Source: a virus | Strand: one strand, 5' to 3' | IMG/VR virus record: IMGVR_UViG_3300045988_174813 | Length of the DNA stretch: 64,000 nucleotides | Shown: positions 23,153-52,511 of the stretch, one piece after another | How positions within the stretch are numbered: the first letter of the stretch is position 1 | How the letters are laid out: each line of letters begins with the position of its first letter | Notes under the pieces: generated by a model | What the model was told of the DNA's origin: nothing | Database searches by the model: none | Seen by the model: the letters and a program-made list of their open reading frames with translations, nothing else | Made by a program: the position numbers and the translations under genes

Positions 23153-23177
23153 CTTTTTGAAATTTTTGTGATATAAT
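23149..23177 (+). promoter_or_regulatory. sigma-A type promoter
   Basis: TTGACT-17-TATAAT. Confidence 0.65.
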
Positions 23178-23199
23178 ATATATAGAAAATGAGAAAGGA

Positions 23200-25968: not shown

Positions 25969-26269
25969 TGAATTTGCAGATTTTCTTGGGCGATATATTG
26001 AAAGTGAAAAGAAATTCAATAATTTTGCACAAGCAGTAGAAGAATATTTTACTGATACATATATAATGGCGCCAAAAGATAGTGAATTAGTTCTTGATAT
26101 TTTGCGCACTGTGATGAATGATGATGAAGATTGGATTAGTTATTGGATGTATGAGTTGGATTGCGGGCGCGCGTGGAAGCCATATATGGTAACCAAAGAT
26201 GGGGAAGATATTCCCTTGCGGACGATGGAGGATTTGTGGAATTTGCTAAATGAGGAGGCGCGCGAATGA
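25952..26269 (+). CDS. hypothetical protein
   Basis: 105-aa ORF, overlapping gene junctions. Confidence 0.55.
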   Translation: MKLTYDEFADFLGRYIESEKKFNNFAQAVEEYFTDTYIMAPKDSELVLDILRTVMNDDEDWISYWMYELDCGRAWKPYMVTKDGEDIPLRTMEDLWNLLNEEARE

Positions 26270-26985
26270 AGATTTATTTAGCTGGACCGATTTTTACTTA
26301 TGGAGATTTACTTCGTAATACTGAATGGGCGCAGAAAATTCGAGAAGCCCTTCCAGGAGTGGATTTATATTCGCCTGTTGAGAATACCGATATAAATGGC
26401 ACAGAAGGCAAGAAGAAATTTGCTGGCTCGCGCGAAATAGCACAGGCAGATAATCTTCGTCTTGATGAAACGGATGTTCTTGTGGCATGTATTGACGGTG
26501 ATGTATTGCCTAGCGGGACATGTGCGGAGATTGGAAAATTTCACGAAAAAATTGCGCGTGGAGACCATAAGCATATTATTGGTATTTGCACTGATAATCG
26601 CCAATGCCATTTGACTAGTAGCCCCGCGAAAGATGCTGGTGGAGCAAGCGAGCTTGGGGAACAACAGTATTCTTATCAGAATCTCTATGTGACTGGGCTT
26701 ATCAAGCAGTATGGAGATTTAGTGTATACTATTGACGAAGTAATTATGCTTCTAAAAAAGTATGCTAAAGAATATGGGCAGAAAGTTACAAGTAAGCGGA
26801 AAACTGACAAAGAACTTATTGAAGAATTTGAAAATGATATGACTCGTTGTCATTTTGAACGTTTTGTCGGTAATTATTATCTATATCATGATGAAGGAAA
26901 TGATGATATTTCTCTAATTAGCATCACTCCTTCTGGTACAATTCAACACTTATTGAGAGAAGTAAATTTGGAGGAAATTGAATGA
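26266..26985 (+). CDS. nucleoside 2-deoxyribosyltransferase
   Basis: MKIYLAGPIF.. start and ..DGDVLPSGTCAEIG catalytic-Glu region. Confidence 0.7.
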   Translation: MKIYLAGPIFTYGDLLRNTEWAQKIREALPGVDLYSPVENTDINGTEGKKKFAGSREIAQADNLRLDETDVLVACIDGDVLPSGTCAEIGKFHEKIARGDHKHIIGICTDNRQCHLTSSPAKDAGGASELGEQQYSYQNLYVTGLIKQYGDLVYTIDEVIMLLKKYAKEYGQKVTSKRKTDKELIEEFENDMTRCHFERFVGNYYLYHDEGNDDISLISITPSGTIQHLLREVNLEEIE

Positions 26986-28208
26986 AGTATGGAATAAAGG
27001 ATAAGCCTCCATTTGGGCAATTGGTTCTTTTCTCACTCCAGATGATGCTTAGTTGCTTTACCGCGACAGCACTTATTGGACAGATTTGTAATGTTCCTTT
27101 GTCGGGCGCATTTGTAGGTTCTGGGCTTGCAACTATTGTATATCTTATTGCAACTAAGTTTGAAAGTAGTATGTACATTTCTAATTCAGGCGCCTTTGTA
27201 TCACCTGTATTGATTGCACTCCAACTTGGTGGCGCGACTGCGGTAGCCATTGGTGGTGCAATTGCTTGTATCGTTTATTGTATTTTTGGCTTTATTTTTA
27301 TGAAGATTGATGTAAGTCATATTTATAAAGTATTGCCTAAGGTGCTTATTGGCTCCATTACTGTAGTTATTGGTATTACTCTTATGAGTTTTATTCCATC
27401 ATACATTGGTGATACTGGTAATGTGGGTATGTTTATTGCACTTATCACGGTACTTACTATTGCTTTTGTTTCTCATTATTGCAAGGGCGCGCTCGCATTA
27501 TTTCCATTTTTGATTGGCACGCTTGTGGGATATGTAGTATCTATTCCTTTTGGCCTTGTAGATTTTAGTGTTTTTGAAGGAATCAGTTTATTTACTCTAC
27601 CTGACCTTGGTTTCTTTCATTGGACAAATATTGATGTAAGTACTTTACCTAATATTATTGTTCTTTTTGTGGCATTTACAGTGAGCGCAATTTGCGAATG
27701 CCTCAGCGATCATGCGGTTCTTGGTAATATTATTGGTGTTGATTTGTATCGTAAGCCTGGTCTTGGGCGCATTTTTATTGGCGAAGGATTAGCAAATCTC
27801 GTGGGCGCGTCAAGTGGGCAACTCGCCCAGTGTAGCTACGGAGAGAGCGTGTCAACTATTGGCTTTAGTAAATGTAGTTCAGTCTATTCTACTCTTGGAT
27901 GCGCGCTCTTTATGATTGCACTTGGTTTTATTGAACCTGTGCAAGCATTCGTAGCATCTATTCCATCCTGTGTTATTGGCGGTGGTACTGCAATGGTGCT
28001 TTATGGATTTATTGCTAATAGTGGTATTCGTACCTTACAGTCAGTAGACTTCAATAACCAGAAGAATCTAATTATTTCTTCTGTTGTTATGTCCCTTGGT
28101 ATCAGTGGCGTTATTGTAGGCAATGATACATTCCATTTGAGTGGAACGGCGCTTGCTCTTATTGCAGGTATTATTTTGAATTTTGTATTGAAGGAGAAAA
28201 ATAACTAA
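26982..28208 (+). CDS. uracil/xanthine permease (NCS2 family, UraA-like)
   Basis: Collinear with E. coli UraA: SLQ, SNSGAFVSPVL, YGESVSTIG, GGTAMVLYGFIANSGIRTL, NLIISSVVMSLGISG; multiple long hydrophobic segments. Confidence 0.8.
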   Translation: MKYGIKDKPPFGQLVLFSLQMMLSCFTATALIGQICNVPLSGAFVGSGLATIVYLIATKFESSMYISNSGAFVSPVLIALQLGGATAVAIGGAIACIVYCIFGFIFMKIDVSHIYKVLPKVLIGSITVVIGITLMSFIPSYIGDTGNVGMFIALITVLTIAFVSHYCKGALALFPFLIGTLVGYVVSIPFGLVDFSVFEGISLFTLPDLGFFHWTNIDVSTLPNIIVLFVAFTVSAICECLSDHAVLGNIIGVDLYRKPGLGRIFIGEGLANLVGASSGQLAQCSYGESVSTIGFSKCSSVYSTLGCALFMIALGFIEPVQAFVASIPSCVIGGGTAMVLYGFIANSGIRTLQSVDFNNQKNLIISSVVMSLGISGVIVGNDTFHLSGTALALIAGIILNFVLKEKNN

Positions 28209-30066: not shown

Positions 30067-30220
30067 ACCTCGCACTTTCAACGAAATGGCGCGAACAATA
30101 CGAGGCTCTTGGGGCGATATAAATCCAGTCACGCGAATAGAGCGGGATAAAACAAAATATACAAGAAAGACTAAACATAAGGGTAAAGATAACTCCTACC
30201 TTTATGGGCTAGTAGCCTAA
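30047..30220 (+). CDS. small basic protein
   Basis: AGGAGG RBS; MKKKKTKPRTF..; last 15 nt overlap tRNA-Lys. Confidence 0.35.
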   Translation: MKKKKTKPRTFNEMARTIRGSWGDINPVTRIERDKTKYTRKTKHKGKDNSYLYGLVA

Positions 30221-30281
30221 TGGTTCAGGCAACGCCCTTTTAAGACGTCTGATGCTGGTTCGATTCCAGTCTAGCCCACCA
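30206..30281 (+). tRNA. tRNA-Lys (UUU)
   Basis: Acceptor GGGCTAG/CTAGCCC, anticodon loop CTTTTAA, T arm GCTGG-TTCGATT-CCAGT, encoded CCA. Confidence 0.85.
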
Positions 30282-30318
30282 ACCCGAAAGGGTATTCTAC
30301 TAGTAGGAGTGAAAATTT

Positions 30319-30684
30319 ATGGAACAAGTTCTTTCTTGGATACAGCTTGCCATCTAGGTTTTGTCTTGTCTCGTTGTAATCATTCCTCTTGGCTATAAGC
30401 TATACCAGACAATTGTTGCTTATGGCAAAGAGAAGAATTGGCCTAAGCTCGTCGGTCTTGTCGCTGTATATATGGCAGAAGCCGAAAAGAAGCTCTCTGA
30501 GGGAGCCGATAAGAAAACTTGGGTTATGGCTATGATACAAACCACAGCCAAGGAAATGGATTATGAGCTTACTGATGCTAAGCTTGCAGAGATTTCTCAA
30601 CTTATTGATGACCTTTGCGCGATGGCAAAGAAAGTCAATGTTAATGTTCTTCCTATTGAGGGCGGAGAGCCTGTGGTTGAATGA
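30319..30684 (+). CDS. LL-H-type holin-like protein (1 sense TAG)
   Basis: ATG 30319, TAG 30355, joins ORF 30361-30684; N-terminal TM then amphipathic domain. Confidence 0.45.
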
Positions 30685-30687
30685 ACT

Positions 30688-30711
30688 TTGGGAGGGTTTA
30701 TGCCCTCCCAA
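30688..30711 (+). terminator. stem-loop after the holin-like gene
   Basis: TTGGGAGGG-6 nt-CCCTCCCAA; no clear U tract. Confidence 0.35.
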
Positions 30712-30782
30712 TCTATAAATTTATCAAGCCCGCGCCTTCTAAGTGGACTTGTAATTAGAACTTCTATGTAGAAAGGTGGTTT

Positions 30783-31520
30783 ATGATTTTGAGTGTCAAT
30801 TACTTTTTCTCTGGGGATACACATGGAGATTTTTCTCGTTTTCGAGACAATCCCATAGCTCAGGATAAGAATAATTATATCGTAATTGCTGGTGATTGTG
30901 GCGCTAATTTTTTTGGTGGAAAGCGTGATATGCGAGTCTGGCAAGAAGTCTCTCAATACCCTTGCCGTTTTTATACCTATTGCGGAAATCACGATATGCG
31001 CCCGCAAAACACGTATAATATGGAACGAGTATATGATGAGGCAGTAAAAGGCTGGGTGTGGTGGAATCCTTACTTTCCTAACCTTCGTTATTTCGAAGAC
31101 TATGGTATCTATATGCTCGGTAAGTATAAGTGCGCCATCATAGGCCACGCTTATTCTGTAGATAAATACTATCGTCTTATGCGCAACTGGACGTGGCATC
31201 CTGATGAGCAACTTACTACCCAGGAACGCTATGAGTGTCAGAAGCTTATGGAAGGTCAGCATTTTGATTTTGTAATGACTCATACTGCGCCATATAATTC
31301 GCGCCCAGTAGATAAATTTTTGGCTTGTGTAGACCAGTCTACTGTAGATGAGACTATGGAGCATTGGCTTGAAGCTCTGCGCGCGGATATAGATTATGAT
31401 GTTTGGCTTCTTGGACACTACCATATTGACCGTATTCAAGAGCCTAAGATGCGGATATTCTATAAAGATATCGACAGTTTAGATAATATCTATACTCAAA
31501 TAGCAAAGCCCAAAATTTGA
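30783..31520 (+). CDS. metallophosphoesterase (calcineurin-like)
   Basis: GDTHGD, IAGDCG, GNHD, GH, LGHYH motifs. Confidence 0.75.
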   Translation: MILSVNYFFSGDTHGDFSRFRDNPIAQDKNNYIVIAGDCGANFFGGKRDMRVWQEVSQYPCRFYTYCGNHDMRPQNTYNMERVYDEAVKGWVWWNPYFPNLRYFEDYGIYMLGKYKCAIIGHAYSVDKYYRLMRNWTWHPDEQLTTQERYECQKLMEGQHFDFVMTHTAPYNSRPVDKFLACVDQSTVDETMEHWLEALRADIDYDVWLLGHYHIDRIQEPKMRIFYKDIDSLDNIYTQIAKPKI

Positions 31521-31545
31521 AAATTCAGAAAAATAATGGTATAAT
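31517..31545 (+). promoter_or_regulatory. sigma-A type promoter
   Basis: TTGAAA-17-TATAAT. Confidence 0.65.
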
Positions 31546-31577
31546 ATATATAGAAAATGAAAGTGAGGGAAAACTAA

Positions 31578-31826
31578 ATGATTACAACTAACGATTGGAA
31601 TGTAGTTCTCAAAGAGCTTGGCTATAAGGAACCAGTATCTAAAGTAAAGCGTAAGCAGAAGCCTACTAAGTGTCGTCTATGTGGCGCCAATATGGTTCCC
31701 CATCCTGGCACCAATGTCTTTACTTGCTCTGGCACTATTGAGAAGGAAATCGAGAAGGATGGTAAGACTGTCAAGATTAGTGAGTCTTGTCCAGGCGTGT
31801 TTCTGCGCAATCGTATTATCAAGTAA
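31578..31826 (+). CDS. zinc-ribbon protein
   Basis: CRLCG..CSG..C; 82 aa. Confidence 0.55.
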   Translation: MITTNDWNVVLKELGYKEPVSKVKRKQKPTKCRLCGANMVPHPGTNVFTCSGTIEKEIEKDGKTVKISESCPGVFLRNRIIK

Positions 31827-31864
31827 ATAACCCCATAAAATCTAACCGAAAGGGAGGACTAGTT

Positions 31865-32089
31865 ATGGAAAGAATCATTGTAGTAGTTGGCTATTTCCCT
31901 AAGTCTAGAGTGTATATGGCTAAAATTGTGCGTGGAGACATATGGGCGCAAGCTTGGAAAGACCAGTGGACTGCTGATGGTGGAACTGTAGCAGTAGGAA
32001 AAATGTTTTATACCAGTGGTAAGCGCGAAGAAGCCTATAAGACTCTCAAGACTAAACTCATAAAAGAAATAAAGGAGAAGAATAACTAA
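31865..32089 (+). CDS. hypothetical protein
   Basis: GGAGG RBS before ATG 31865. Confidence 0.55.
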   Translation: MERIIVVVGYFPKSRVYMAKIVRGDIWAQAWKDQWTADGGTVAVGKMFYTSGKREEAYKTLKTKLIKEIKEKNN

Positions 32090-32325
32090 TGGAAGATGGT
32101 TGGATAGATGTAAACTATTCCTTCTCTACTGTAGGCTATGCGCGTGATACATTACTTGCGCGATTACGGCAGATGGTTGTGAATTATGAACGGTTGGAAC
32201 TTGTGGATAGAAGTCATTGGAGTGATTGGCGCGAGACAATTCTTTTGCGCGGGTCTATTCGTGATGGAGAATATGGCGAGTTTCAGAAGTTTATGGAAGA
32301 AATGATGCGTGAGTATGATGTGTGA
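32089..32325 (+). CDS. hypothetical protein
   Basis: 78-aa ORF, TAATG coupling. Confidence 0.55.
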   Translation: MEDGWIDVNYSFSTVGYARDTLLARLRQMVVNYERLELVDRSHWSDWRETILLRGSIRDGEYGEFQKFMEEMMREYDV

Positions 32326-32328
32326 AAT

Positions 32329-32357
32329 TTGAATTTTTGAAAAATTTAGTGTATAAT
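32329..32357 (+). promoter_or_regulatory. sigma-A type promoter (variant leader TGTAAGGTTGAGAGAG)
   Basis: TTGAAT-17-TATAAT. Confidence 0.65.
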
Positions 32358-32385
32358 ATATATGTAAGGTTGAGAGAGAAATAAT

Positions 32386-32646
32386 TTCTTGAAACTTTAT
32401 ACGCACATATCGGGGCGGAGTATGCGACGACACGTGCAACGAAGCAAATAAACTCGGCAGTGCCTGTATATGTTGCAACCGTTGGAGGACGAGATAAACC
32501 TCCGGTAATTTGTAGTTTTCCATTCCTCAAGAGAAAGCTTCCGGAAATACGAGAAGGGAATGTATGGCGCGCGCGAACCAGCATTCAAAATCCCCACGAA
32601 GAGGGCATTTGTGGATTGGGTGTTTTGCCACAAGATGCACTAAAAT
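32386..32646 (+). ncRNA. promoter-driven ORF-free structured transcript, unknown class
   Basis: No RBS-preceded ORF; helices GGAGG/CCTCC, CATTCC/GGAATG, CCAC/GTGG; ends at the next promoter. Confidence 0.4.
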
Positions 32647-32647
32647 T

Positions 32648-32676
32648 TTGACTTTCTGGAAATTTTAGTGTATAAT
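32648..32676 (+). promoter_or_regulatory. sigma-A type promoter driving tRNA-Leu
   Basis: TTGACT-17-TATAAT; near-identical copy at 34550. Confidence 0.7.
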
Positions 32677-32696
32677 AAATATAGAAAGTGAGATAT

Positions 32697-32781
32697 GGGG
32701 AATTGGTGTAATAGGTAGACACAAGGCACTTAAAATGCCTGGGCGAGAGCCATACCAGTTCGAGTCTGGTATTCCCTACCA
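32697..32781 (+). tRNA. tRNA-Leu (UAA)
   Basis: Anticodon arm AGGCA-CTTAAAA-TGCCT, long variable arm, T arm ACCAG-TTCGAGT-CTGGT, A73, CCA. Confidence 0.85.
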
Positions 32782-32867
32782 TACAAAAGGATAGGATGAT
32801 GTTGGCCTATCATCTGATAAGAGATGCCCCTCTTCCTTTTGTTTATTTTAGGGCAAGGGGTAAATTT

Positions 32868-33503
32868 ATGGCGTATATTTATAAGATTGTAAATAGAGTA
32901 AATGGAAAACTCTATATTGGTAAAACTTAGTTCTCTATTGAAAGGCGATTTTAGGAGCATATTAGAGCCTCTAAAAAAGAAAATTGTGCTAATCGTCCTC
33001 TATATAAAGCTATGAAAAAATACGGGATTGACAATTTTTATGTTGAACTTATTGAGGAAACTAATAATCCAGAAGAGCGTGAGCAGTTTTGGATAAGATA
33101 TTATAATAGTTATGTTGGTTTTTCTAACTGTCAAGGTTATAATGCTACTTTAGGTGGTGACGGGAAAGCTTATATTGATAGAGAACCGATAATTGAACTC
33201 TTTTAGTAGGGTCTTACATAGAGAGAAATTTCTTCTTTGCTGGGTTATGATGCTCATACTATAAGAGTAGCTTTGAATGAAGCTGGATTTTCCCATAAAG
33301 AAATTGAAAATAATGCTCTTTCTAAATAGAAAAAGGGCGTTCAGATGTTAGATAAAATAACTTCTGAATAGATAGCTCTTTTCTCTTCTATAATGGAAGC
33401 AGAAAGGTATCTCCAAAAACCGCAAAGTCGTCGGCATATAGCTGAGGTTTGTAATGGAAAACGAAAATCAGCTTATGGGTATAAATGGCAATGGAATAAC
33501 TAA
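32868..33503 (+). CDS. GIY-YIG homing endonuclease (7 sense TAG)
   Basis: YIYKIVNRVNGKLYIGKT..RF.EH..N..LY.A..KYG..NF..E..E....REQFWI..Y; C-terminal ..NGKRKSAYGYKW; ORF 33012 shares the frame. Confidence 0.75.
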
Positions 33504-33538
33504 AATAAATTTATGGATGTATAACATCCATAATATAT

Positions 33539-33610
33539 GGCGGGAAGCGATGGTCGCAGATTGGTCTCATACACCAATTATTGAGTGTTCGAATCACTCT
33601 CCCGCACCCA
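33539..33610 (+). tRNA. atypical tRNA, anticodon CAU (Met/Ile2-type)
   Basis: Anticodon arm TTGGT-CTCATAC-ACCAA, T arm GAGTG-TTCGAAT-CACTC, CCA; D loop only 3 nt, G1/A72 mismatch. Confidence 0.5.
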
Positions 33611-34436
33611 TAGACGTGCCCTAATGCGTCTCTAAATAATCAGGGTAGTGCGAGAGAGGATGGATTTACGGTAAACTACCACTGGCGTCACAGACCCAAT
33701 AGGAGGGCGACGATATGTGGCTTGTCATTTGGAATCGCACTATAATACAAAGAAAACGAAAGTAACCGTGTATTTCTTATTCTGCGCGCCCTGCATTCAA
33801 AGCGCTCAATGAAGCAGGAGCTTAGTAGACAAAAGAAAAGGGTTCGTTTAGCTTATAACCCTAAAAGCTAAACTTTGTATAGAGGCGAGAGGATGAACCT
33901 CTATGGGGTTTTTGGTAACGGTCTCCTAACGAACACGTAACGGGTCGGAAGTCCCAAAATCTTCCCGCAGGCACGGCGATAGTTATCCCGCTTATGTGAA
34001 GGGTTCGTAGCGTAAAATGTACCCTATCCAGCAAGAAGCTACGCTGGGAGTGAGCTTCCGCTGGCAGTCGTGAAAAGCTCGCGTCTTAGGCTGTGTCAAT
34101 GCCCTAAGCGTTAGGTCGATTACGAGAAATTGACTAGGTTTTAGTGCTTTTGTGAAATATAAAGCTCCTGCGCGGGCGAGTGCAGAATATTGTAAAGGGA
34201 GAAGTACAATCCCATCGTTCAGTTTGGTCGTTGCTGTATAAAACGACCACCAAATGGCGCGCTTCCAGTTTCTAAATGCGTAGGTTGTCTTTACCTCAGA
34301 AATTATAGGTTGCATAGAAAGTAATTAGAAGATGTAAAATAATAATAAGTCCTATAAGAGTAAGGAAAAAGATAATGGTTAGATATGCAGGGCGTAGAGT
34401 TGATGGTGTGCTCGCGCGGAGGATGAAACCATCCAT
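33611..34436 (+). ncRNA. ~825-nt ORF-free structured spacer between two tRNAs (large ncRNA candidate)
   Basis: Looks GC-richer than flanks by eye; >=8 local helices, e.g. CTTAGG/CCTAAG 34085-34108, GGTCGTT/AACGACC 34226-34248. Confidence 0.45.
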
Positions 34437-34511
34437 GGAGTATTCGTATAGTGGCTAATATTCCAGTCTTCCAAACTGGCGCGGTGGGTTCAATTCCCAC
34501 ATACTCCTCCA
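34437..34511 (+). tRNA. tRNA-Gly (UCC)
   Basis: Acceptor GGAGTAT/ATACTCC, loop CTTCCAA, T arm GTGGG-TTCAATT-CCCAC, CCA. Confidence 0.85.
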
Positions 34512-34549
34512 TGGTTCGGTAGTTTATCCTTCAAAAGCTACCTAGAATT

Positions 34550-34578
34550 TTGACTTTCTGGAAATTTTAGTGTATAAT
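34550..34578 (+). promoter_or_regulatory. sigma-A type promoter driving the suppressor tRNA
   Basis: TTGACT-17-TATAAT; leader ATAGAAAGTGG runs straight into the tRNA. Confidence 0.7.
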
Positions 34579-34597
34579 AAATATAGAAAGTGGATGA

Positions 34598-34673
34598 AGG
34601 CCTGTGGTGTAACGGTAAGCATAGGAGGCTCTAACCCTCTTGATACTCGTTCGAGTCGAAGTCGGGCCTGCCA
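34598..34673 (+). tRNA. suppressor tRNA, anticodon CUA (reads UAG), Gln-like
   Basis: Acceptor AGGCCTG/CGGGCCT, anticodon arm GGAGG-CTCTAAC-CCTCT (CTA at 34631-34633), G73, CCA; one bulge in the T stem. Confidence 0.8.
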
Positions 34674-34803
34674 TACTAAAGGCGCACACAGCAATTCCTA
34701 ATAGGGTAAAAATTTGTTCTGCACAAACGAATTAGTTGGTTCAAATCCAACAAAAAAAACTTGCGTCTTGAGTTTATTTCAAAAGAAAGAAAGGAAAACA
34801 TTT

Positions 34804-35010
34804 ATGTCTACAAATAAAGGTTATATGAAAGCCTATAACTTCATTGCAAAGCCTGGTTCTAAATCCTCCATCGCACGTCAGGCGGAACTTTCCGCGCGAC
34901 CCGTTATTGTTCATTCTTGTAGTGTGTGCGGCGCGCAGGGAACATTGTATCGTACAAATAAGGGCGAACATCCTGCGGTGTATGTTTGTAAGGAGCATCG
35001 GGCGAAGTAA
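34804..35010 (+). CDS. small Cys-containing protein
   Basis: GAAAGGAAA RBS, ATG 34804; CSVCG..C..H. Confidence 0.5.
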   Translation: MSTNKGYMKAYNFIAKPGSKSSIARQAELSARPVIVHSCSVCGAQGTLYRTNKGEHPAVYVCKEHRAK

Positions 35011-35026
35011 GTTTCGCCCTATATAT

Positions 35027-35101
35027 TGTGCTTTAGCTCAGTGGTAAGAGCCGGCGACTTATAATCGTCAGACGATAGTTCAACTCTATCAAGCACAACC
35101 A
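35027..35101 (+). tRNA. tRNA-Ile (UAU)
   Basis: Acceptor TGTGCTT/AAGCACA, D arm GCTC-AGTGGTAA-GAGC, loop CTTATAA, T arm GATAG-TTCAACT-CTATC, CCA. Confidence 0.8.
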
Positions 35102-35514
35102 TTTGGGAGGAAGGATGTAATCCGTAATCTACCTCCACTAATATGGCGTAAGTAGCTTGGACTTTGCTCCGCCTATAATAGAGCCTAACTCAAAGCATAG
35201 TGTTATAGAGCGTGAGAGCCAACGTCTATGTTGGCTCCCGCAATTGAACAGCTAATTATTCATTTTTCCCTACCTCCTTCTTTGTTCTCTTTTGGTCGTT
35301 GAGAGAATAAATAAAACGACTACCAATAGACTTTCACACCTCTGGCGGGCTGCAAGTGGCAAATGAAAGTCTTTCCGAAAGTAGGAAAATCCTTCTACTT
35401 GCGCGGAAACCATTTCGGAATTGACCACTGCGATGGTATCTTCGTTTTAGAGGTTACAGCCTAGTTAGCCATTATGGGAAGTCTGGTCAATGGAACATAA
35501 TGGTTAGCGTACTT
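35102..35514 (+). ncRNA. ~410-nt ORF-free structured spacer
   Basis: Helices GAGCCAAC/GTTGGCTC 35215-35236, GACTTTCA/TGAAAGTC 35329-35371, and 12 bp TTAGCCATTATG/CATAATGGTTAG 35464-35508. Confidence 0.4.
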
Positions 35515-35591
35515 GGTGCCATCGACTAATTGGCTAGGTCACGACCCTTTCACGGTCGTAATGTTGGGTTCAAGTCCCACTGGCATCTCCA
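35515..35591 (+). tRNA. tRNA-Glu (UUC)
   Basis: Acceptor GGTGCCA/TGGCATC, anticodon arm CGACC-CTTTCAC-GGTCG, T loop TTCAAGT, CCA. Confidence 0.75.
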
Positions 35592-35624
35592 TATATTACC
35601 GATATATTAGAAAGGAAGAGACAA

Positions 35625-36398
35625 ATGGACATCACTAATTTTGATACCTATAATGCGCGAATGTCATCCTCTATTGAGGATAAAATGTGGTTTTGGGATA
35701 AAGTCAAACATACTACAGATTCTATTGTAGATTATGGATGCGCCGATGCGTCTCTTCTTTTGCGTATCAATGAAGAGCATCCTTATCAGACTCTTATTGG
35801 CTATGATGCTTCTGATGATATGCTAGCCCGCGCGAAAGAAAAAACTAAAAATACACCTATTTGCTTTGTAGAAAGTATATTTGAGCCGGAAATGAAAGAG
35901 ACTTGTCTTGTTCTTTCTTCTGTAATTCATGAAATCTATTCTTATCAGTTGAAAGAAGATGCAGATTTTGAACTGGGCATGATTTTTGACCTTGGCGCAA
36001 AATATATTGCAATTCGTGATATGGGTATACGAGATATATGCCGTAATATAGAAACACCAATCGATGTTCTCAAAAACATTTATGCACGCGATGATGTTGC
36101 TAAGATTGCTTCTTTTGAAAAACGTCAAGGCCGTATTTCTAATTGGGCAAATTGTATTCACTATCTTTTGAAGGCGCCATATGACGAGAATTGGGCGCGA
36201 GAAGTGGAAGAAAATTATGTACCGTTTACTATGAATGAAGTGCTCGCGCAATATAATGTGGATAGTCCTGTCAAATATGATGTGGTGTTTTTTGAAGCAT
36301 ATACCTTACCCTATGTGCGCGAACGCATTATTCGAGATTATAATATTAGCTTGTATACGCCCACTCACTATAAACTGCTTCTTGAACGTCATTTCTAA
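35625..36398 (+). CDS. class I SAM-dependent methyltransferase
   Basis: IVDYGCADAS (motif I), LIGYDASD, LVLSSVIHE; embedded in the tRNA island. Confidence 0.6.
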   Translation: MDITNFDTYNARMSSSIEDKMWFWDKVKHTTDSIVDYGCADASLLLRINEEHPYQTLIGYDASDDMLARAKEKTKNTPICFVESIFEPEMKETCLVLSSVIHEIYSYQLKEDADFELGMIFDLGAKYIAIRDMGIRDICRNIETPIDVLKNIYARDDVAKIASFEKRQGRISNWANCIHYLLKAPYDENWAREVEENYVPFTMNEVLAQYNVDSPVKYDVVFFEAYTLPYVRERIIRDYNISLYTPTHYKLLLERHF

Positions 36399-36405
36399 TC
36401 TATAT

Positions 36406-36489
36406 GCCACCGTGATGGAAAGTATACATACAAGCCTTAGAAGCTTGCGCCCGCGAGGGATTGCGAGGTCGAACTCGCCGGTGGCACCA
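36406..36489 (+). tRNA. tRNA-Leu (UAG)
   Basis: Acceptor GCCACCG/CGGTGGC, anticodon arm CAAGC-CTTAGAA-GCTTG, long variable arm, A73, CCA; T loop looks 6 nt. Confidence 0.7.
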
Positions 36490-36496
36490 GTAAAAT

Positions 36497-36525
36497 TTGA
36501 ATTTTCTGAAAATTTAGTGTATAAT
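36497..36525 (+). promoter_or_regulatory. sigma-A type promoter
   Basis: TTGAAT-17-TATAAT. Confidence 0.65.
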
Positions 36526-36559
36526 ATATACATAAGATGAAGAAAGGAAAGAAAATCTA

Positions 36560-36775
36560 ATGGCTTATTTTGATTGTATGGGAACTTGTGGGGTTAGTCC
36601 TTTCAAGTGTAAGAATCACTATTGTAGTGGTAATCCTCATTACACCCCGCCGAAGCGGAAAGTGAAACCCAAGCAGGGTTCTGGCAATCATCCTGTTCGT
36701 TCTATTCGTGCGAAAATTCGTAAGGATGATGGACGCGGATATAATTTCTTTAGAGATATGGCGCGAGACGAATAA
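36560..36775 (+). CDS. small basic Cys-rich protein
   Basis: GAAAGGAAAG RBS; 71 aa, K/R-rich. Confidence 0.5.
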   Translation: MAYFDCMGTCGVSPFKCKNHYCSGNPHYTPPKRKVKPKQGSGNHPVRSIRAKIRKDDGRGYNFFRDMARDE

Positions 36776-36778
36776 GTT

Positions 36779-36855
36779 TAGCGTATAGTGGAAGGCTCTT
36801 ACAGCGATAGATTTATAATTCTATTGTATTATTGGTTCGACTCCAATTGCGCAAT
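36779..36855 (+). tRNA. tRNA-like gene with 7-bp anticodon stem and 8-nt loop (TTTATAAT)
   Basis: Acceptor TAGCGTA/TGCGCAA (1 mismatch), T arm ATTGG-TTCGACT-CCAAT; non-canonical anticodon arm. Confidence 0.35.
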
Positions 36856-37239
36856 TGCGTATAGCTTAGTTGGTAAAGCAAATAAAAATTATTAGAGCCT
36901 TGGATAGTTTACCTTAGATAAGTTTGGATTTTAGTTAGTTTTGAGTAAAGACCCTTACAGCAAACATTCTAATATTTTTGGACTTATAATCCCGTGGTCG
37001 GTGGTTCGAGTCCACCTCAGACAGCCTGCGTGGTATGTCAGGTAGCTCAGTTGGCTAGAGCACGAAAATTATTTTGTGGGTCTTGTTTTATGTTTTGTTG
37101 GATTGGTACTCCTTAGTAAATAAAGGCGCGGGACTGCAATCTTTGAAAAAAGAATGTGATATAATAGATACTGTCGAGCGACCTCGGTAGGCTTGACCCC
37201 AAGTTCGGCTGGATTATCCAGCTCGCGCCTTGTATTTAT
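36855..37239 (+). other. cluster of unpaired tRNA half-molecules plus a structured element
   Basis: 5' half 36855-36880, 3' half ~36978-37024 (loop CTTATAA, T arm GGTGG-TTCGAGT-CCACC), 5' half 37036-37062; helix AAGGCGCG/CGCGCCTT 37124-37230. Confidence 0.4.
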
Positions 37240-37315
37240 GGATGGTTATCTCAACTGGAAGAGAGCTCGCCTTACACGCGAGAGGTTAGAAGTTCAAGTC
37301 TTCTACTATCCACCA
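37240..37315 (+). tRNA. tRNA-Val (UAC)
   Basis: Acceptor GGATGGT/ACTATCC, anticodon arm CTCGC-CTTACAC-GCGAG, T arm AGAAG-TTCAAGT-CTTCT, CCA. Confidence 0.85.
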
Positions 37316-37602
37316 TAGATTACCACTTGTTAGATTGTTATCCTCCTGAGACGTCAGCTAGTTCTGGCAATCAATAAGTGAATAATCTACGTCCAATATC
37401 TCACTCACGACGTAAAACTCTTGTGAGGTCGCAAAGGAGAGATGCGTGAGCGGGTCTCACTCCAGACTGCGTTAGGTCGAAAAGACGTCTAGCTCAACCT
37501 TTTTCTTTGTCTGTTCTTTTAGTGGAAGTATCGAAAAATGAACGGCAGAAACGTTTCGAGGTTCGAGTGGTTTCCTTGGGAGGACCGAAAACCACTCACT
37601 AT
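37316..37602 (+). ncRNA. ~290-nt ORF-free structured spacer
   Basis: Helices GTGAG/CTCAC ~37446-37460 and GTGGTTT/AAACCAC ~37567-37594; GACGTC-AGCT boxes at 37351 and 37484. Confidence 0.35.
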
Positions 37603-37679
37603 GCTTCCATACCCCAATAGGTAGAGGGGAATGGCTCAAACCCATTGTAGTCTCAGTTCGAATCTGAGTGGAAGTACCA
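37603..37679 (+). tRNA. tRNA with anticodon CAA but a short (class I) variable arm
   Basis: Acceptor GCTTCCA/TGGAAGT, anticodon arm AATGG-CTCAAAC-CCATT, 5-nt variable region, T arm CTCAG-TTCGAAT-CTGAG, A73, CCA. Confidence 0.65.
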
Positions 37680-37765
37680 TTGGCAGTTTACCACCTGCCG
37701 TCGATTTTTTTCTTTAGCATATGATAAGTTATGACGTTCTTATCTGAAATAAAAACGTCATCTAT

Positions 37766-37840
37766 GGGAGATTAGCCTAGTGGTTCAGGCAGTCGGCTGT
37801 TAACCGACCTACAGGTGTTCAATTCACTTATTTCCCGCCA
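37766..37840 (+). tRNA. tRNA-Asn (GUU)
   Basis: Acceptor GGGAGAT/ATTTCCC, anticodon arm GTCGG-CTGTTAA-CCGAC, T loop TTCAATT, G73, CCA. Confidence 0.85.
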
Positions 37841-37935
37841 GAACGGTTGTTGGGCCAACCGTTTCGTTTCCTCTTTTTCTTTGTAGGGTTTGGCAGTTTC
37901 CTTGGGGTCTCACTTCTAAAAACTGCCTTTTATAT

Positions 37936-38009
37936 TGAGGATGTGGTGTAATGGTAGCATTCCTGTTTTGGGTACAGGCGGAGCCGTTCAAATCGGACAT
38001 CTTCAACCA
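37936..38009 (+). tRNA. tRNA-Pro (UGG)
   Basis: Anticodon arm CCTGT-TTTGGGT-ACAGG, acceptor TGAGGAT/ATCTTCA, CCA; weak T stem. Confidence 0.65.
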
Positions 38010-38035
38010 TATCAAAAAAATTTAGGAGGTATATT

Positions 38036-38308
38036 ATGCCTAAGGTACTCTTTGAATGTAATGATTGTGGCAAGTTCTATGGCAGTGAAGCGGAAGCTCT
38101 TGCTTGTGAAAAAGCTCATGCTAGTGAACGCACGCGTAAGGAAAAGCTTCAGGCTGAAAAGAAAGCTCGTTTGGAAGCTATCCGTGCACAGTATGAAAAG
38201 CTTCTTGAAGATATTCGCAAGTTCAATGAGGACTATGCGGAACCTGCAACAATGAGTTATACTGGTGCACTTAGTAAGGTGTTGGATAGTTTTTTCAAGT
38301 TGTTCTAA
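38036..38308 (+). CDS. zinc-ribbon / coiled-coil protein
   Basis: AGGAGG RBS; CNDCG..C start, K/E-rich helix. Confidence 0.55.
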   Translation: MPKVLFECNDCGKFYGSEAEALACEKAHASERTRKEKLQAEKKARLEAIRAQYEKLLEDIRKFNEDYAEPATMSYTGALSKVLDSFFKLF

Positions 38309-38403
38309 GTGAATCATTGAATAAGATATAAAGACGCATAACAGCAATACATTATATAAATATTTTTTGAAAATATATTATGGAAATGCGTCTTGGTTTA
38401 TAT

Positions 38404-38478
38404 AGGAGCGTCGCCAAGTGATTAAGGCACGGGACTTTGACTCCCGCATCGTGCGTTTGAATCGCACCGCTTCTGCCA
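38404..38478 (+). tRNA. tRNA-Gln (UUG)
   Basis: Acceptor AGGAGCG/CGCTTCT, D arm GCCA-AGTGATTA-AGGC, anticodon arm CGGGA-CTTTGAC-TCCCG, G73, CCA. Confidence 0.85.
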
Positions 38479-38558
38479 GATAGATTGAATAAATCGTCTA
38501 ATTCAAGTAGGTTATAAGATAGTCTGCTAATTTCCGTTCAGCAGGAGCGCAGAAAGAT

Positions 38559-38586
38559 AGATATAAGACCTAATATATCTTTTGTT
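38559..38586 (+). terminator. stem-loop plus T run
   Basis: AGATATA-8 nt-TATATCT, then TTTTG. Confidence 0.45.
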
Positions 38587-38601
38587 CAATCAACCTAAAA
38601 T

Positions 38602-38630
38602 TTGAATAATTTCAAAATATATTGTATAAT
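38602..38630 (+). promoter_or_regulatory. sigma-A type promoter
   Basis: TTGAAT-17-TATAAT. Confidence 0.65.
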
Positions 38631-38665
38631 ATATACATAAAGTAAAGAAGAAAGGAAACACTAAA

Positions 38666-39037
38666 ATGAAAACCTATCCTATTGAGAAGTACAAGTTCAT
38701 TATCCTTCCTGAGCAGAAGAAAGTCATTGCGCTTACTTCGTATGCTGGTAAAACTGTAAAGGGTGTTGCCGTGTGCAGTGAACATGATGAATTTGATATT
38801 GAAACGGGCAAACGGCTTGCTGCCGCGCGAGCCAATGTAAAGGTAGCAATGAAGCGTAAGGCGCGTGCCGAGAAGAAGCTGGCATACTTTGATAAAATTA
38901 TTGAAGATGTCGAGCGTGAGTATCATGAGCTTGAAGGTTATGCTTATGATGCTGGCGAACGATGGGAAAACGCGATTGATGAACTGGCTGGTGTGCTGAA
39001 TGATGTTGGCGCGCTTGAGCCGATGGATATTGAGTAA
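38666..39037 (+). CDS. hypothetical protein
   Basis: GAAAGGAAA RBS; 123 aa. Confidence 0.55.
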   Translation: MKTYPIEKYKFIILPEQKKVIALTSYAGKTVKGVAVCSEHDEFDIETGKRLAAARANVKVAMKRKARAEKKLAYFDKIIEDVEREYHELEGYAYDAGERWENAIDELAGVLNDVGALEPMDIE

Positions 39038-39048
39038 GGAGTAAATTT

Positions 39049-39645
39049 ATGGGTCGGTGCGAAAGTAAGTATTGTGAAAAATGTGGGTGTTATGTGCCTG
39101 AGGGAGAGACAGCGTGTGTTTCTTGTGGGTATGATCCTACTCCAAAGCCTGTGCGCCGACCTGATCCTCTTGCAGATATGTATGCGCGAGACCCTTGGGC
39201 GATAGCGCAGTATCATACTCCTTTACCCATGGATTACGCACAACTGGTGAATGTGGCACCGAAGGTAAGACAGATGACTCTGAATGAAGTGCTTGATGAG
39301 TTGAAAATGGAAGATAAGTATGAGCGGTCCGCGCGAGCAATGAGTCAGATTTTTTGTTCAACTGCTCAAGCCTCTGAAGCTTTTACTCAACTTGCACGAG
39401 ACCATCAAGATGCGCAGAAACAGGTAATATTGCATGAATTTCTTTGGGCAAAAGGCGGAAAGGGCAATTCTTCAATAGTCACAACTCCAAATTGTATCAA
39501 AAATGAGATGGATAGAAATTGTTTGGAACTTTGTGAATATTGTTCTTTGGAACAAGAGAGAAAAGATATATATACTCACAGGATTATTAGAACATACAAA
39601 TGTTTGAAACATCCTCATGTGTCTTATATAAGTGTAATCAACTAA
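39049..39645 (+). CDS. zinc-ribbon protein
   Basis: CEKCG..CVSCG N-terminus; 198 aa. Confidence 0.55.
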   Translation: MGRCESKYCEKCGCYVPEGETACVSCGYDPTPKPVRRPDPLADMYARDPWAIAQYHTPLPMDYAQLVNVAPKVRQMTLNEVLDELKMEDKYERSARAMSQIFCSTAQASEAFTQLARDHQDAQKQVILHEFLWAKGGKGNSSIVTTPNCIKNEMDRNCLELCEYCSLEQERKDIYTHRIIRTYKCLKHPHVSYISVIN

Positions 39646-39647
39646 AT

Positions 39648-39741
39648 GGGCGTCTAATCCTAATTGGCTAAGGAAATAGTCTTGAAAACTATTAGTAGCA
39701 TCGTAAGGTGTGTCTCGGTTCAAGTCCGAGGGCGCTCGCCA
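39648..39741 (+). tRNA. tRNA-Ser (UGA)
   Basis: Anticodon arm ATAGT-CTTGAAA-ACTAT, long variable arm, T arm CTCGG-TTCAAGT-CCGAG, G73, CCA. Confidence 0.8.
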
Positions 39742-39743
39742 TG

Positions 39744-39856
39744 AATAGAATAGTAGGGTTAGCCTGTTCCGTGGTGATACGCGGGTCGCACCTTTGAGAA
39801 CGCCTTGTATACGGGTAAAACAGAGCACAAGCCGGCAATGTTCTCTCTATTCTATT
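39744..39856 (+). ncRNA. ~115-nt structured spacer closed by a 10-bp helix
   Basis: AATAGAATAG (39744) pairs with CTATTCTATT (39847). Confidence 0.35.
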
Positions 39857-39862
39857 TTATAT

Positions 39863-39950
39863 GCGGAGTAAATCCAGAAGGTCTGGAGCCTACCTGCTAA
39901 GTAGTGCGTAGTCGTAAGGCTATATGAATCGTTTTCATTGCTCCGCGCCA
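39863..39950 (+). tRNA. atypical tRNA-Ser (GCU)-like
   Basis: Acceptor GCGGAGT/GCTCCGC, loop CTGCTAA, long variable region, CCA; T loop lacks TTC and the D arm is aberrant. Confidence 0.45.
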
Positions 39951-39953
39951 TAT

Positions 39954-39996
39954 GCCAGAGATTGGTGTTGAGTGGGTTCGAATCCCACCGCTGGCA
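39954..39996 (+). other. acceptor/T-arm minihelix (tRNA lacking D and anticodon arms)
   Basis: GCCAGAG-11 nt-GTGGG-TTCGAAT-CCCAC-CGCTGGC-A; no CCA. Confidence 0.4.
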
Positions 39997-40073
39997 TCGA
40001 GGGCTTTTGCAATAAGCCCAAGAGATTGCAATCATGTATATTGGGAGGAGTTGAGACCCTACCCAATATATAT

Positions 40074-40148
40074 GCCTTCGTAGTATAATGGCTATTACTT
40101 CGGATTTGTAACCCGAAGATAGGTGTTCAATTCACCTCGAAGGCTCCA
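40074..40148 (+). tRNA. tRNA-Thr (UGU)
   Basis: Acceptor GCCTTCG/CGAAGGC, loop TTTGTAA, T arm AGGTG-TTCAATT-CACCT, CCA. Confidence 0.8.
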
Positions 40149-40648
40149 TTACCGCACGGATGGCCATGGTTCCAATATGACGGTATTACTTCTATATTGA
40201 AGGTTTGGTGCGGTATATAAATGAATATGGGTCTAAATTCAAATGGTAGAGCCTTCATTTGAATAACAAAGTGTGATAAATGTGAACAGATAGAGCGCTA
40301 AGCGCACGGGTCTTCTAGGGGCCTTCTCTATCATCTATGCTCTAATAGTTTAGTAGGAAAAATACCGGCATCGTTGCCGGAGAGAGCGGTTCGAATCCGT
40401 GAAGGGGCCGTGGTTCTTCCACCACGAAGAGAAGCGGGTGGTTTCCACCGTTAGGAAACTAAGATACCGAGTGACACGTGGTATCTATGGGAGGATACGT
40501 TGACTTCCACTGTTGGTCTCCTCAACAGTAATGTAGATGGAGTGACATCCGGAAAAGAGCGGAATAGCGCATTCGACGTTGTGATGTGCGCCATAGGTAT
40601 ATGGCCGGAAAAAAGATACCCATCCCGTCTGCGAGGACGGGAGCCTAT
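40149..40648 (+). ncRNA. ~500-nt ORF-free structured spacer (large ncRNA candidate)
   Basis: Helices TACCGCAC/GTGCGGTA 40151-40215, GATACC/GGTATC 40463-40485, CTGTTG/CAACAG, CCCGTC/GACGGG 40623-40640; holds a tRNA 5'-half-like copy at 40339. Confidence 0.4.
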
Positions 40649-40729
40649 CCTCTAATAGCAAAGTGGTAATGCATACCATCCCAAGTTTACGTAAGAAGGT
40701 AACCATTGGTTCGAGTCCAATTTAGAGGA
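40649..40729 (+). tRNA. tRNA-like gene with an enlarged anticodon region
   Basis: Perfect acceptor CCTCTAA/TTAGAGG, D arm GCA-AAGTGGTAA-TGC, T arm ATTGG-TTCGAGT-CCAAT; TACC..GGTA encloses 20 nt; no CCA. Confidence 0.4.
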
Positions 40730-40730
40730 C

Positions 40731-41704: not shown

Positions 41705-43405
41705 ATGGCTGGCAAGCTATGGCATGCCTTTGGATAGCAAGGTACTTTTGTATACTATAAGCGCCTTGCAACTGATGCTTTAGTAAATCCTTCTCTTGGA
41801 GGACTATATAAGCATTCATTGGGGCAACTTGAAATGTCTTCTATACTTGGAAAAGTGAAGAATAAAGATATATCGCGGTCTCTTCGTGCGCAAGCATCTG
41901 TGGAGTTAAACAAAGAGCTTACTGCTTTGCAAAATGCCTGGGGCATAAGTTTTCCTGCTTCTGTCGTGAATGGGTAGTATTTTTATGATGGGCTGATTAG
42001 GGCTATTAATACACAAATACAAACTAATGCGGTGTATTAGCGTAATAAAGACCGTTTAGAGTATACCAATAAGCAAGGTAAACGAAATGCTCTTGCAAAA
42101 ATAGATGCGACGCAGTTCTTTGGAACATATTTTGAAAAACAATGGAAAGCAAATTATAAACAGATATAGGCTGAGTTAACAAGTAATATGACTGGTGATA
42201 ATCTTGTCCAACTTGTTGAGAGTACTCTAAATAACTGGCTTCCAACTTTATTAAATAATGCTCTTATAGATATGATGTCTAGTCAAGCGTTTGATGTGCG
42301 CTGGAATACACCAGAAGCTATAGCGGGTAATTAGCGCTGGGAACAGGATACTGCTTATAGAGATATGGTTGCCCAACTCCAAAAATACGGCGCAGATATG
42401 TAGAATAATCAGATATTACAATAGGTATGGAAAACGTATAATTTTGATGGGTTACTCGATGCACTTACTAAATCTATTACTGCTTCCGCGAAAGCAGAGA
42501 CTTCTACTAAGGATTTAAGTAAAGTTCTTTCTAAACAAGTTTCTAAAGTAGTGGGGCGCGCATCTACGGCAGGTAATTTAGCTGAAATCATTTGGAGTTA
42601 GCTGGTTGCAAGTGTAAATAGTGGTCCTGACTTTAGTGTAATGCATACTGGCGCGCGCAATCAATAGAAAGCCGACTTTATGATTTTCTTTCGCGCGAAT
42701 GCCCAAGACTTTCTAAGTAAGCAAAGTGAGATTATTGCTGAGCAAAAAGCTGACGATGAAGAAAGTATACGTATACAAAACATTATTGCAACTAACGGGG
42801 CATCATAGTTTTTAGCGAGTAATTCGATAGGTTATAATTTTATTGCTTACGTGAACGCAAAGAATTACACTCTCAATGATAGTTTTAGCGGATTTAGCGC
42901 AGGTTCCGCAATGGGCATGGGAGATATTGAACGTATGTTAAATATGATTCCTGGTGTAAGTTAGAATGGTGTATGGAGTCTAATTTCTTCTCTTATTCAA
43001 TTCGGAGATGGTGCGATTGGTGCGGGGACCGGCATGGAACAGGATCTTATGAATCAAATGAGTGAAGTCATTGCTAATTTTTTATTTGATGACTATGCAA
43101 CTTTGTGCTCTGATATAAGTGGTTCTACAAGTAGCAGTATTCATTTATTTGCTCTTGATGGGATATATATACCACTTTCTTTTTTTTTGAATATAAGTGC
43201 AGATGCTATTGATATAGGATGGGAAGAAGCGCAAGATTATTTTAATTTTGAACTTCATACTGTGCCTATACTTTATGGGGATTTGGCTCTTGATGAATAT
43301 ACGCCCGAAATGTGGGAGACACAAAGAGCTGATGCGCTTGCAAGAACTAAGATAAGTATGAGTTTTTTAAAGTCTTTTCAGACGCTTATTGGTTCTTTAA
43401 TATAA
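41705..43405 (+). CDS. 566-aa protein of unknown function (11 sense TAG)
   Basis: GGTGGTGAG RBS, ATG 41705; single frame to TAA 43403-43405; contains ORF 43034-43405; all 11 internal stops are TAG. Confidence 0.7.
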
Positions 43406-47633: not shown

Positions 47634-47677
47634 AGTAGAGTTCGGAACCTTTTTTGGTAGACGGACTCTATTTTTTT
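47634..47677 (+). terminator. imperfect hairpin plus T7 run
   Basis: TAGAGTTCGG..CGGACTCTA, then TTTTTTT. Confidence 0.4.
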
Positions 47678-47704
47678 GACTTTTTTGAAAATTTAGTGTA
47701 TAAT
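47676..47704 (+). promoter_or_regulatory. sigma-A type promoter
   Basis: TTGACT-17-TATAAT. Confidence 0.65.
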
Positions 47705-47730
47705 ATATATAGAAAGTGAGGGAAAAAGAA

Positions 47731-52468: not shown

Positions 52469-52482
52469 TTCAAACTTACATT

Positions 52483-52511
52483 TTGACTTTTTTGAGAATT
52501 TAGGGTATAAT
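52483..52511 (+). promoter_or_regulatory. sigma-A type promoter
   Basis: TTGACT-17-TATAAT. Confidence 0.65.

Follow-up and report, generated by a model that had tools for sequence, protein, structure and literature searches.

The virus genome IMGVR_UViG_3300045988_174813 of the IMG/VR database carries, between the genes for two transfer RNAs (tRNAs), tRNA-Met(CAU) and tRNA-Gly(UCC), a block without reading frames. We analysed a 64,000-nt stretch of this phage (the window), in which the block covers positions 33611-34436 of the + strand (826 nt), and show that it encodes structured non-coding RNA, on the + strand, that matches no described RNA family. The block is composite: a compact motif, module A (33612-33772), is followed by an RNA that we call X (33773-34436), and two units describe the whole better than one giant RNA. 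The reading that we favour, and regard as rather probable, is that these are non-coding RNAs embedded in a tRNA operon, X being a new positional analogue of the phage RNAs ROOL and GOLLD, and module A a new companion motif.

An earlier note on this DNA had singled out the block as non-coding, and this observation is real. According to ARAGORN, tRNA-Met ends at 33610 and tRNA-Gly starts at 34437, so that the exact tRNA-to-tRNA limits proposed for the block hold. Both genes belong to an array of 16 tRNA genes (30206-40730), every one on the + strand, in which an amber-suppressor tRNA (cta) starts at 34598, downstream of tRNA-Gly. Several genes of the phage contain in-frame TAG codons, seven of them in a GIY-YIG endonuclease gene (32796-33503); TAG is consequently a sense codon in this phage. 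All six frames of the block hold at least four TAA codons each in addition to TAG or TGA, so none is open under any reassignment of a single stop codon. An antisense open reading frame (ORF) of 107 amino acids (33992-34315) does not stay open in most of the 14 homologues described below, where frameshifts or stops disrupt it, and the variable columns of their alignment fall into the three phases as 74/78/69, without codon periodicity. The block is thus free of ORFs, as had been claimed, and the TAA codons in all frames, the lack of a conserved frame and the even phases speak against a protein gene in which TAG stood for glutamine. A census of the regions left uncovered by stop-free stretches (90 codons or more, with TAG read through) agrees with the earlier note that this is the largest non-coding block of the window. 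Its G+C content is indeed the higher one, at 44.7% against 40.7% for the whole window, with local peaks of 46-49%.

Searched with the 4227 models of Rfam 15, the whole window yields tRNAs only at gathering thresholds. At E<=10 nothing was found inside the block, whether it was searched as 33300-34800 (1.5 kb) or as the 826 nt alone; four homologous loci were likewise negative inside the element, and scans of 13 related loci found nothing inside X or module A. The match to GOLLD or ROOL envisaged in the earlier note was not recovered: the models of ROOL (RF03087, gathering score 99.1 bits) and GOLLD (RF02032, 150 bits) gave zero matches at E<=10 on the 826 nt alone; the GOLLD model describes the universally conserved 3' region of that RNA. 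Group I and group II introns, RNase P RNA and tmRNA (the last also sought with ARAGORN) have no match in the block, and the HDV-family models have none either, module A included. These negatives are informative because the same library detects such RNAs in other phages of this set, whose loci are given here by our own handles: ROOL at 307-327 bits (L046, L047, L076), GOLLD-like RNAs at 107-112 bits (L034, L046, L047), YrlA-like RNAs and a group I intron. The intron, at L008 6861-7046 (54.8 bits; gathering score of RF00028, 50 bits), demonstrates the sensitivity of the group I model in this phage group. An element matching neither ROOL nor GOLLD was to be regarded as a new phage RNA, and with the intron, RNase P and tmRNA models negative as well, that is how the block has to be classed.

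Among GenBank phages, the block returned tRNA matches only when searched by blastn in distant mode, megablast with 20 kb found no related record, and tblastn with the neighbouring methyltransferase found only relatives of less than 40% identity. Homologues were collected from IMG/VR by pattern scans and through contigs encoding the neighbouring methyltransferase. This gave 14 distinct homologues, 80-99% identical, on gut-phage contigs of ~84-130 kb, all from one lineage of TAG-recoded gut phages, and in 14/14 the element sits directly before tRNA-Gly. Comparison of the window with five relatives (Table 1) places the core of the element (88-99% identity) at the level of tRNAs and above the neighbouring protein genes (80-93%). 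tRNA-Met is unusually divergent, at 69-93% identity versus 92-100% for the RNA that comes after it.

Single-sequence folding of the block is only mildly better than that of shuffled sequences (z = -3.06 for the + strand and -2.36 for the - strand); the real structural support is the comparison of homologues. In alignment A4 (14 sequences), 21 local helices comprising 122 pairs were scored, and 98.3% of the helix cells are paired, a percentage inflated by the derivation of the helices from the same 14 sequences. Changes on both sides affect 15 of the 122 pairs; the corresponding numbers are 7.1+-1.7 for shuffles (0 of 500) and 2-7 for slid controls. GC/GU and AU/GU alternations are frequent and tolerated on the + strand alone, since they would be C-A mismatches on the other strand. 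The helices that the earlier note had listed fared unequally. AGACG/CGTCT and GGTCGTT/AACGACC are supported by one compensatory change each. CTTAGG/CCTAAG, GGGA/TCCC and GAGG/CCTC can pair in all sequences but show hardly any variation, and GGGTT/AACCC is possible but competes, or forms a pseudoknot, with a 9-bp helix (33846-54/33865-73). GTAGC/GCTAC (34007-34042) fails, as its 3' strand becomes GCUUC or ACUCU in 8/14 sequences while the 5' strand stays fixed. A pairing of our own, UUGUA/UACAA at 34189-34209, was taken for a pseudoknot stem and dropped, as other lineages do not conserve it.

The same data bear on whether the block could be a DNA-level element (a replication origin, a packaging site or a set of protein-binding palindromes) or a decayed gene. 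It has no reading frame, it contains GC-rich palindromes, and homing-endonuclease genes flank it in several relatives, all of which would suit such an element. However, the compensatory changes preserve pairing, the GC/GU alternations would create C-A mismatches on the other strand, the GCGCGC/CGCGCG palindromes are spread genome-wide rather than local, and neither a conserved frame nor codon periodicity in the substitutions is seen. Already disfavoured, this explanation is barely credible.

Module A is a well-supported new small motif with very strong covariation. Scans with a 16-mer from its 5' part, followed by two gapped patterns, located it in L034, L041, L046, L047, L072, L075, L076 and L077, that is, in at least six other phage lineages. 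In alignment A7 (10 sequences from 7 lineages), 14/22 pairs change on both sides, where shuffles give 6.4+-1.6 (0 of 500); its covariation score is 0.437, compared with 0.121. The closing helix P1 occurs as GUGCGA/UCGCAC, CUGCGA/UCGCAG, GAAGCC/GGCUUC and CACGC/GCGUG, and P3a as CGC/GCG, CAC/GUG and CUC/GAG, while the pseudoknot that joins the 3' tail to the loop following GGAUU keeps 5-7 bp in six different sequence versions. The junctions comprise about 75 nearly invariant nucleotides. The covariance model of the motif, R1, finds exactly one copy per locus. A weak R1 match on the - strand of the window (43165-43273; 22.9 bits, E about 0.04, 29% G+C), which is also seen in L030, is probably due to chance. 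The optional 5' hairpin P0 is 100% paired in the 14 sequences, with one A-U to G-C change. A P0-like hairpin with the stem GCAC/GUGC and a similar loop, GCCCUCAAU, stands just before module A in L034, L046 and L047; a GCCCU(C)AAU loop in the hairpin preceding module A is common to the window and the L034 group.

Module A keeps company with tRNAs. In L041 it lies exactly between tRNA-Glu(ctc) and tRNA-Glu(ttc), in L075, whose contig is binned as Acutalibacteraceae, between two tRNAs of a 24-gene tRNA array, and in L072 and L077 shortly downstream of a tRNA. In L034, L046 and L047 it comes after a GOLLD-like RNA (107-112 bits, E about 1e-28), at a distance of 35 nt, and is followed by tRNA-Met and ROOL, and in L076 it lies 28 nt before a ROOL (307 bits). 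What the earlier note had guessed about a tRNA, ROOL and GOLLD context therefore holds for the neighbourhood of module A, but not for homology to either RNA. The three loci L034 400-819, L046 463-1933 and L047 5060-6536 belong to one lineage, with a contig of up to 165 kb, which packs a GOLLD-like RNA, module A, tRNA-Met and a full ROOL (310-327 bits) into about 1.5 kb of its tRNA array. At L047 7022-7086 there is also a twister-P1-like match of 43.9 bits, below the gathering score.

To judge from its dense conserved junctions, module A may be a processing ribozyme, or else a fold that binds a ligand or a protein. In recoded gut phages, small structured theta ribozymes directly adjoin the 3' ends of tRNAs (bioRxiv 10.1101/2023.06.13.544163). 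Like theta and minimal HDV-like ribozymes, module A begins immediately behind the 3' end of a tRNA in L041 and L075, and its order of strands (P1 5', pseudoknot 5', P1 3', pseudoknot 3') is that of HDV P1/P2. However, it is about twice as long, has long conserved junctions, and lacks both a P4 helix and a J4/2-like context for a catalytic C. With no HDV-type match in Rfam and different junctions despite the similar pseudoknot topology, its assignment to the HDV-like or theta ribozymes is not supported.

The block had been described as a single RNA of ~825 nt, a description that our analysis does not bear out as it stands: it is at least bipartite, module A being followed by about 665 nt. The view could be kept by taking module A as the 5' domain of one giant ornate RNA of about 825 nt, covalently joined to X when mature. 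No spacer separates the two, since the pseudoknot strand of module A ends at 33770 and the first helix of X starts at 33773; there is no promoter- or terminator-like site between them, their order is the same in 14/14 homologues, and the 28 nt that separate module A from ROOL in L076 are a similarly close fit. On the other hand, module A is self-contained and has no large RNA attached in L041, L075, L072 and L077, it lies on the 3' side and not the 5' side of the GOLLD-like RNA in L034, L046 and L047, and no covarying pairs between module A and X were found in alignment A4, in a screen limited by noise. We consider a single giant RNA possible but doubtful.

X, of about 665 nt, has about 17 modelled helices and one covarying pseudoknot. 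It starts two bases after the pseudoknot strand of module A and ends two bases past its terminal hairpin, at tRNA-Gly. Its 5' domain is exchangeable: L002 has a shorter unrelated sequence in its place, and in L030 the first hairpin is replaced with its pairing preserved. The central domain is nearly invariant, and most of its pairs other than the pseudoknot never vary among the 14 homologues; stem 2 of the pseudoknot is fully rewritten in L008 as GAGACUC/GAGUCCUC. Despite its fast evolution, the hairpin cluster that follows keeps 97-100% of its cells paired through compensatory and GC/GU changes. The A/U-rich linker varies in length among relatives, with insertions and deletions of up to 30 nt, and two pairs of its hairpin have changed on both sides. 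The pairs of the 3' end are invariant among the 14 homologues.

Table 1. Positions of module A, X and the features around them, with nucleotide-level remarks and the identity of each feature between the window and five relatives
Feature	Position	Strand	Identity among relatives	Remarks
Promoter-like site	32648-32676	+		TTGACT-17-TATAAT; upstream of tRNA-Leu; 11/12 consensus matches
tRNA-Met(CAU)	33539-33610	+		5' boundary; ARAGORN; Rfam tRNA 29.6 bits; short D arm
Module A	33612-33772	+	92-99%	
P0 hairpin	33612-33631	+		AGACGU/GCGUCU, loop GCCCUAAU; optional 5' hairpin of module A; 33612-17/33626-31 among the best-supported helices
Module A core	33646-33772	+		~127 nt; covariance model R1 136.5 bits
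Module A P1	33646-53/33735-42	+		closing helix
Module A invariant strand	33654-66	+		GAGAGGAUGGAUU; after P1 5' strand
Module A pseudoknot	33667-72 with 33765-70	+		internal loop with 3' tail
Module A P3	33679-82/33717-20	+		
Module A P3a	33686-89/33709-12	+		
Module A A-rich strand	33743-64	+		
X variable 5' domain	33773-33964	+		long hairpin 33773-33838, apical loop 33799-33810 with palindrome 33801-33806
X 5' domain, further helices	33846-54/33865-73, 33881-85/33898-902, 33947-51/33961-65	+		the last among the best supported, 4/5 pairs covary
X central domain	33965-34168	+	88-98%	hairpin series c1 to c6, nearly invariant
X H-type pseudoknot	34028-32/34043-47 with 34035-40/34053-58	+		CCAGC/GCUGG with GAAGCU/AGCUUC; among the best supported, stem 2 wholly rewritten in L008
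X covarying hairpin cluster	34168-34300	+	70-86%	lowest identity of the element; 34168-73/34180-85, 34197-200/34210-13, and the best-supported 34225-32/34242-49, 34259-62/34278-81, 34282-85/34293-96
X A/U-rich linker	34301-34385	+		hairpin 34310-15/34332-37, among the best supported
X conserved 3' end	34386-34436	+	92-98%	terminal hairpin GGAUG-AAAC-CAUCC 34421-34434, two bases before tRNA-Gly
tRNA-Gly(UCC)	34437-34511	+	95-100%	3' boundary; ARAGORN and Rfam, 55.6 bits; comparison
Promoter-like site	34550-34578	+		just ahead of suppressor tRNA
Methyltransferase gene			80-93%	comparison
68-aa ORF			81-90%	comparison

The closest points of comparison for X are ROOL and GOLLD. ROOL is a multi-helix, pseudoknotted non-coding RNA of ~580 nt found in phages and prophages near tRNA islands, and forms an RNA-only homo-octameric cage as seen by cryo-EM; GOLLD, of about 800 nt, has a variable 5' region and a conserved 3' region and is often found beside tRNA-Met in phage tRNA arrays, GOLLD env-38 having first been found downstream of a tRNA-Met (PMC12286853). 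The block shares the niche of ROOL, lying inside a 16-tRNA array of a TAG-recoded phage, and X recalls GOLLD in layout only: behind tRNA-Met, an exchangeable 5' domain leads into a conserved core. X could on these grounds be thought a highly diverged member of one of the two families, the more so as it is of similar size and as module A neighbours X, ROOL (L076) and the GOLLD-like RNA (L034, L046, L047) alike. The evidence argues otherwise. ROOL and GOLLD models that reach 307-327 and 107-112 bits in other phages, a relative included, find nothing on the 826 nt at E<=10. A nhmmer profile built from three ROOLs is blank on X, and R2, a covariance model of the X central domain, matches in this lineage only and is blank on the loci bearing ROOL or GOLLD, so that no similarity to ROOL in sequence or covariance models is seen in either direction. 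Moreover, X is about 85 nt longer than ROOL, which is widespread whereas X occurs in one phage lineage, and module A lies 5' of X but 3' of the GOLLD-like RNAs. Membership of X in either family, already disfavoured, is very improbable.

The phage of L076 is a relative of the window phage (61% amino acid identity in PhoH, 81% in structural proteins), and its ROOL occupies, behind module A, the position that X has in the window. A different ORF-free element of ~470 nt follows the same tRNA-Met at L022 5315-5783 and L028 5285-5763 (also in L023), before tRNA-Sup and tRNA-Gly, in phages whose methyltransferase is 45% identical. The L022 and L028 copies are 83% identical, with 8 compensatory pairs and no Rfam match. 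We considered it as a diverged X and rejected this, as it has no collinear similarity, no module A and no R2 match; it appears to be a different structured RNA. According to the lineage, the slot behind tRNA-Met thus holds X, ROOL or the ~470-nt element, that is, different large structured RNAs.

How these RNAs would be made can be proposed from the signals around them. An element of ~45 nt containing TTGACT-17-TATAAT occurs in at least six copies on the + strand of the window (23146-23191, 32643-32690, 34550-34597, 47674-47718, 52480-52533 and 54573-54617), and these repeats are probably the phage's own strong promoters. Since there are promoter-like sites at 32648 and 34550 and none between them, we infer a single transcript across the block. 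Starting from the 32648 site, it would comprise tRNA-Leu, the endonuclease gene where present, tRNA-Met, module A, X and tRNA-Gly. Host tRNA enzymes would free the RNAs, on the 5' side as the 3' end of tRNA-Met is processed and on the 3' side by RNase P, whose cut at the 5' end of tRNA-Gly presumably sets the 3' end of X. As X occupies the same slot behind the same companion module, it would take the part played by ROOL or GOLLD elsewhere among phages. We picture module A as a portable accessory RNA, either a processing ribozyme or a ligand- or protein-binding fold.

Alternatively, the block may act in cis, as a leader or spacer of the tRNA operon whose processing or decay signals set the dosage or timing of neighbouring tRNAs, rather than as a stable trans-acting RNA. 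Its position within the tRNA transcription unit, just upstream of tRNA-Gly and with the amber suppressor 160 nt downstream, would be consistent with such a role, and tRNAs of gut phages, suppressors above all, are known to be flanked by processing ribozymes of the theta type (bioRxiv 10.1101/2023.06.13.544163). However, 826 nt with about 20 helices and tRNA-like conservation go far beyond the needs of processing signals, a promoter-like site of its own precedes the suppressor tRNA at 34550, and module A also occurs away from suppressor tRNAs. We regard a purely cis-acting element as improbable.

The favoured reading, in which X is an analogue of ROOL and GOLLD, may extend to self-association of X. 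The apical loop of its first hairpin reads AGCGCU, GGCGCC, GAGCGCUC, AGAGCUCU or GAGCUC and is self-complementary in every lineage. Such a 6-nt palindrome cannot pair within one hairpin loop, and palindrome-preserving change is the kind of evidence that supports the intermolecular kissing loops GOLLD L21a and OLE L9.3 (PMC12286853). ROOL homo-oligomers are held partly by kissing loops; in X, known from its sequence, the palindrome-keeping loop hints that this RNA, too, may self-associate by means of a palindromic kissing loop, in the manner of ROOL and GOLLD. GCGCGC and CGCGCG occur 72 and 69 times, respectively, in the 64 kb, compared with roughly 4-5 each expected from base composition. Local enrichment of GCGCGC in the block was considered and rejected, as the motif is enriched across the whole genome.

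Several observations weigh against the favoured reading. Given the base composition, a 6-nt palindrome has a chance of roughly 10% per loop variant; GC-rich palindromes are about 15-fold over-represented genome-wide, and the palindromic loop could be a DNA-level feature. As to structure, besides the inflated proportion of paired cells, the conserved core of X shows no variation that could speak for or against its pairs, and RNAalifold global folds were unstable between runs; with an all-against-all covariation screen for long-range helices limited by noise, only local helices are reported here. X is confined to one phage genus in these searches, four of its core blocks, used as patterns in IMG/VR, finding three known relatives and chance matches only. 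Neither the ROOL and GOLLD models nor R2, which has no match in L022 or L028 either, link X to those RNAs. Finally, module A stands alone in four lineages, and its adjacency to ROOL, GOLLD-like RNAs and X may just reflect the dense packing of non-coding RNAs in tRNA arrays.

The window phage also offers a comparison with the Ro/Y RNA systems. It encodes a Ro/TROVE-like protein of 520 aa (20957-22516; DUF2828+DUF7788; PHROG 'RNA-binding protein'), relatives have YrlA-like matches in the same tRNA array, and in L041 module A lies about 330 nt upstream of a homologous Ro-like protein gene; however, the YrlA model matches neither module A nor X. In the window phage the YrlA-like element lies elsewhere, at about 36780-36920, where ARAGORN reports a 'tRNA-??? 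tata' (36779-36855). The homologous stretch L002 7177-7290 scores 42 bits with the YrlA model (E = 5e-6), below the gathering score. Judging from sequence, the presence of this element and of the Ro-like protein suggests a phage Ro/Y RNA pair.

Other mobile or accessory sequences were observed in these phages. At L008 6824-7101, equivalent to window 34598-34667, a 278-nt insert carrying the group I intron match (RF00028, 54.8 bits) replaces the amber-suppressor tRNA(CUA), which ARAGORN does not find at this place; the suppressor tRNA of this TAG-recoded phage may contain an intron. Free-standing homing endonucleases come and go around the element (window 32796-33503, L014 735-1784, L029 4796-5776, L030 5153-5857, L026 6135-7046, L024 936-1688); they are of the GIY-YIG type, and HNH in L024. 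At 26266-28208 of the window, ahead of the tRNA array, a gene resembling nucleoside 2-deoxyribosyltransferases stands beside a gene of the xanthine/uracil permease family. Permease genes are unusual in phages.

Cages made of RNA alone are built by ROOL and GOLLD, two abundant RNAs of phages. More speculatively, and on balance unlikely in so complete a form, X could be a third independently evolved class of ornate phage RNA forming an RNA-only homo-oligomer, with module A as a shared accessory, such as a processing ribozyme or an adaptor for a ligand, cargo or protein, combined interchangeably with ROOL, GOLLD or X in tRNA operons. The covariance models R1 and R2 can be used on large assemblies to map both RNAs. 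With a covariation among the clearest that ten sequences can yield, module A provides a handle for finding self-cleavage, a ligand or a protein partner. That related phages have unrelated large RNAs in this slot suggests that it carries a function which different RNA folds can fulfil.

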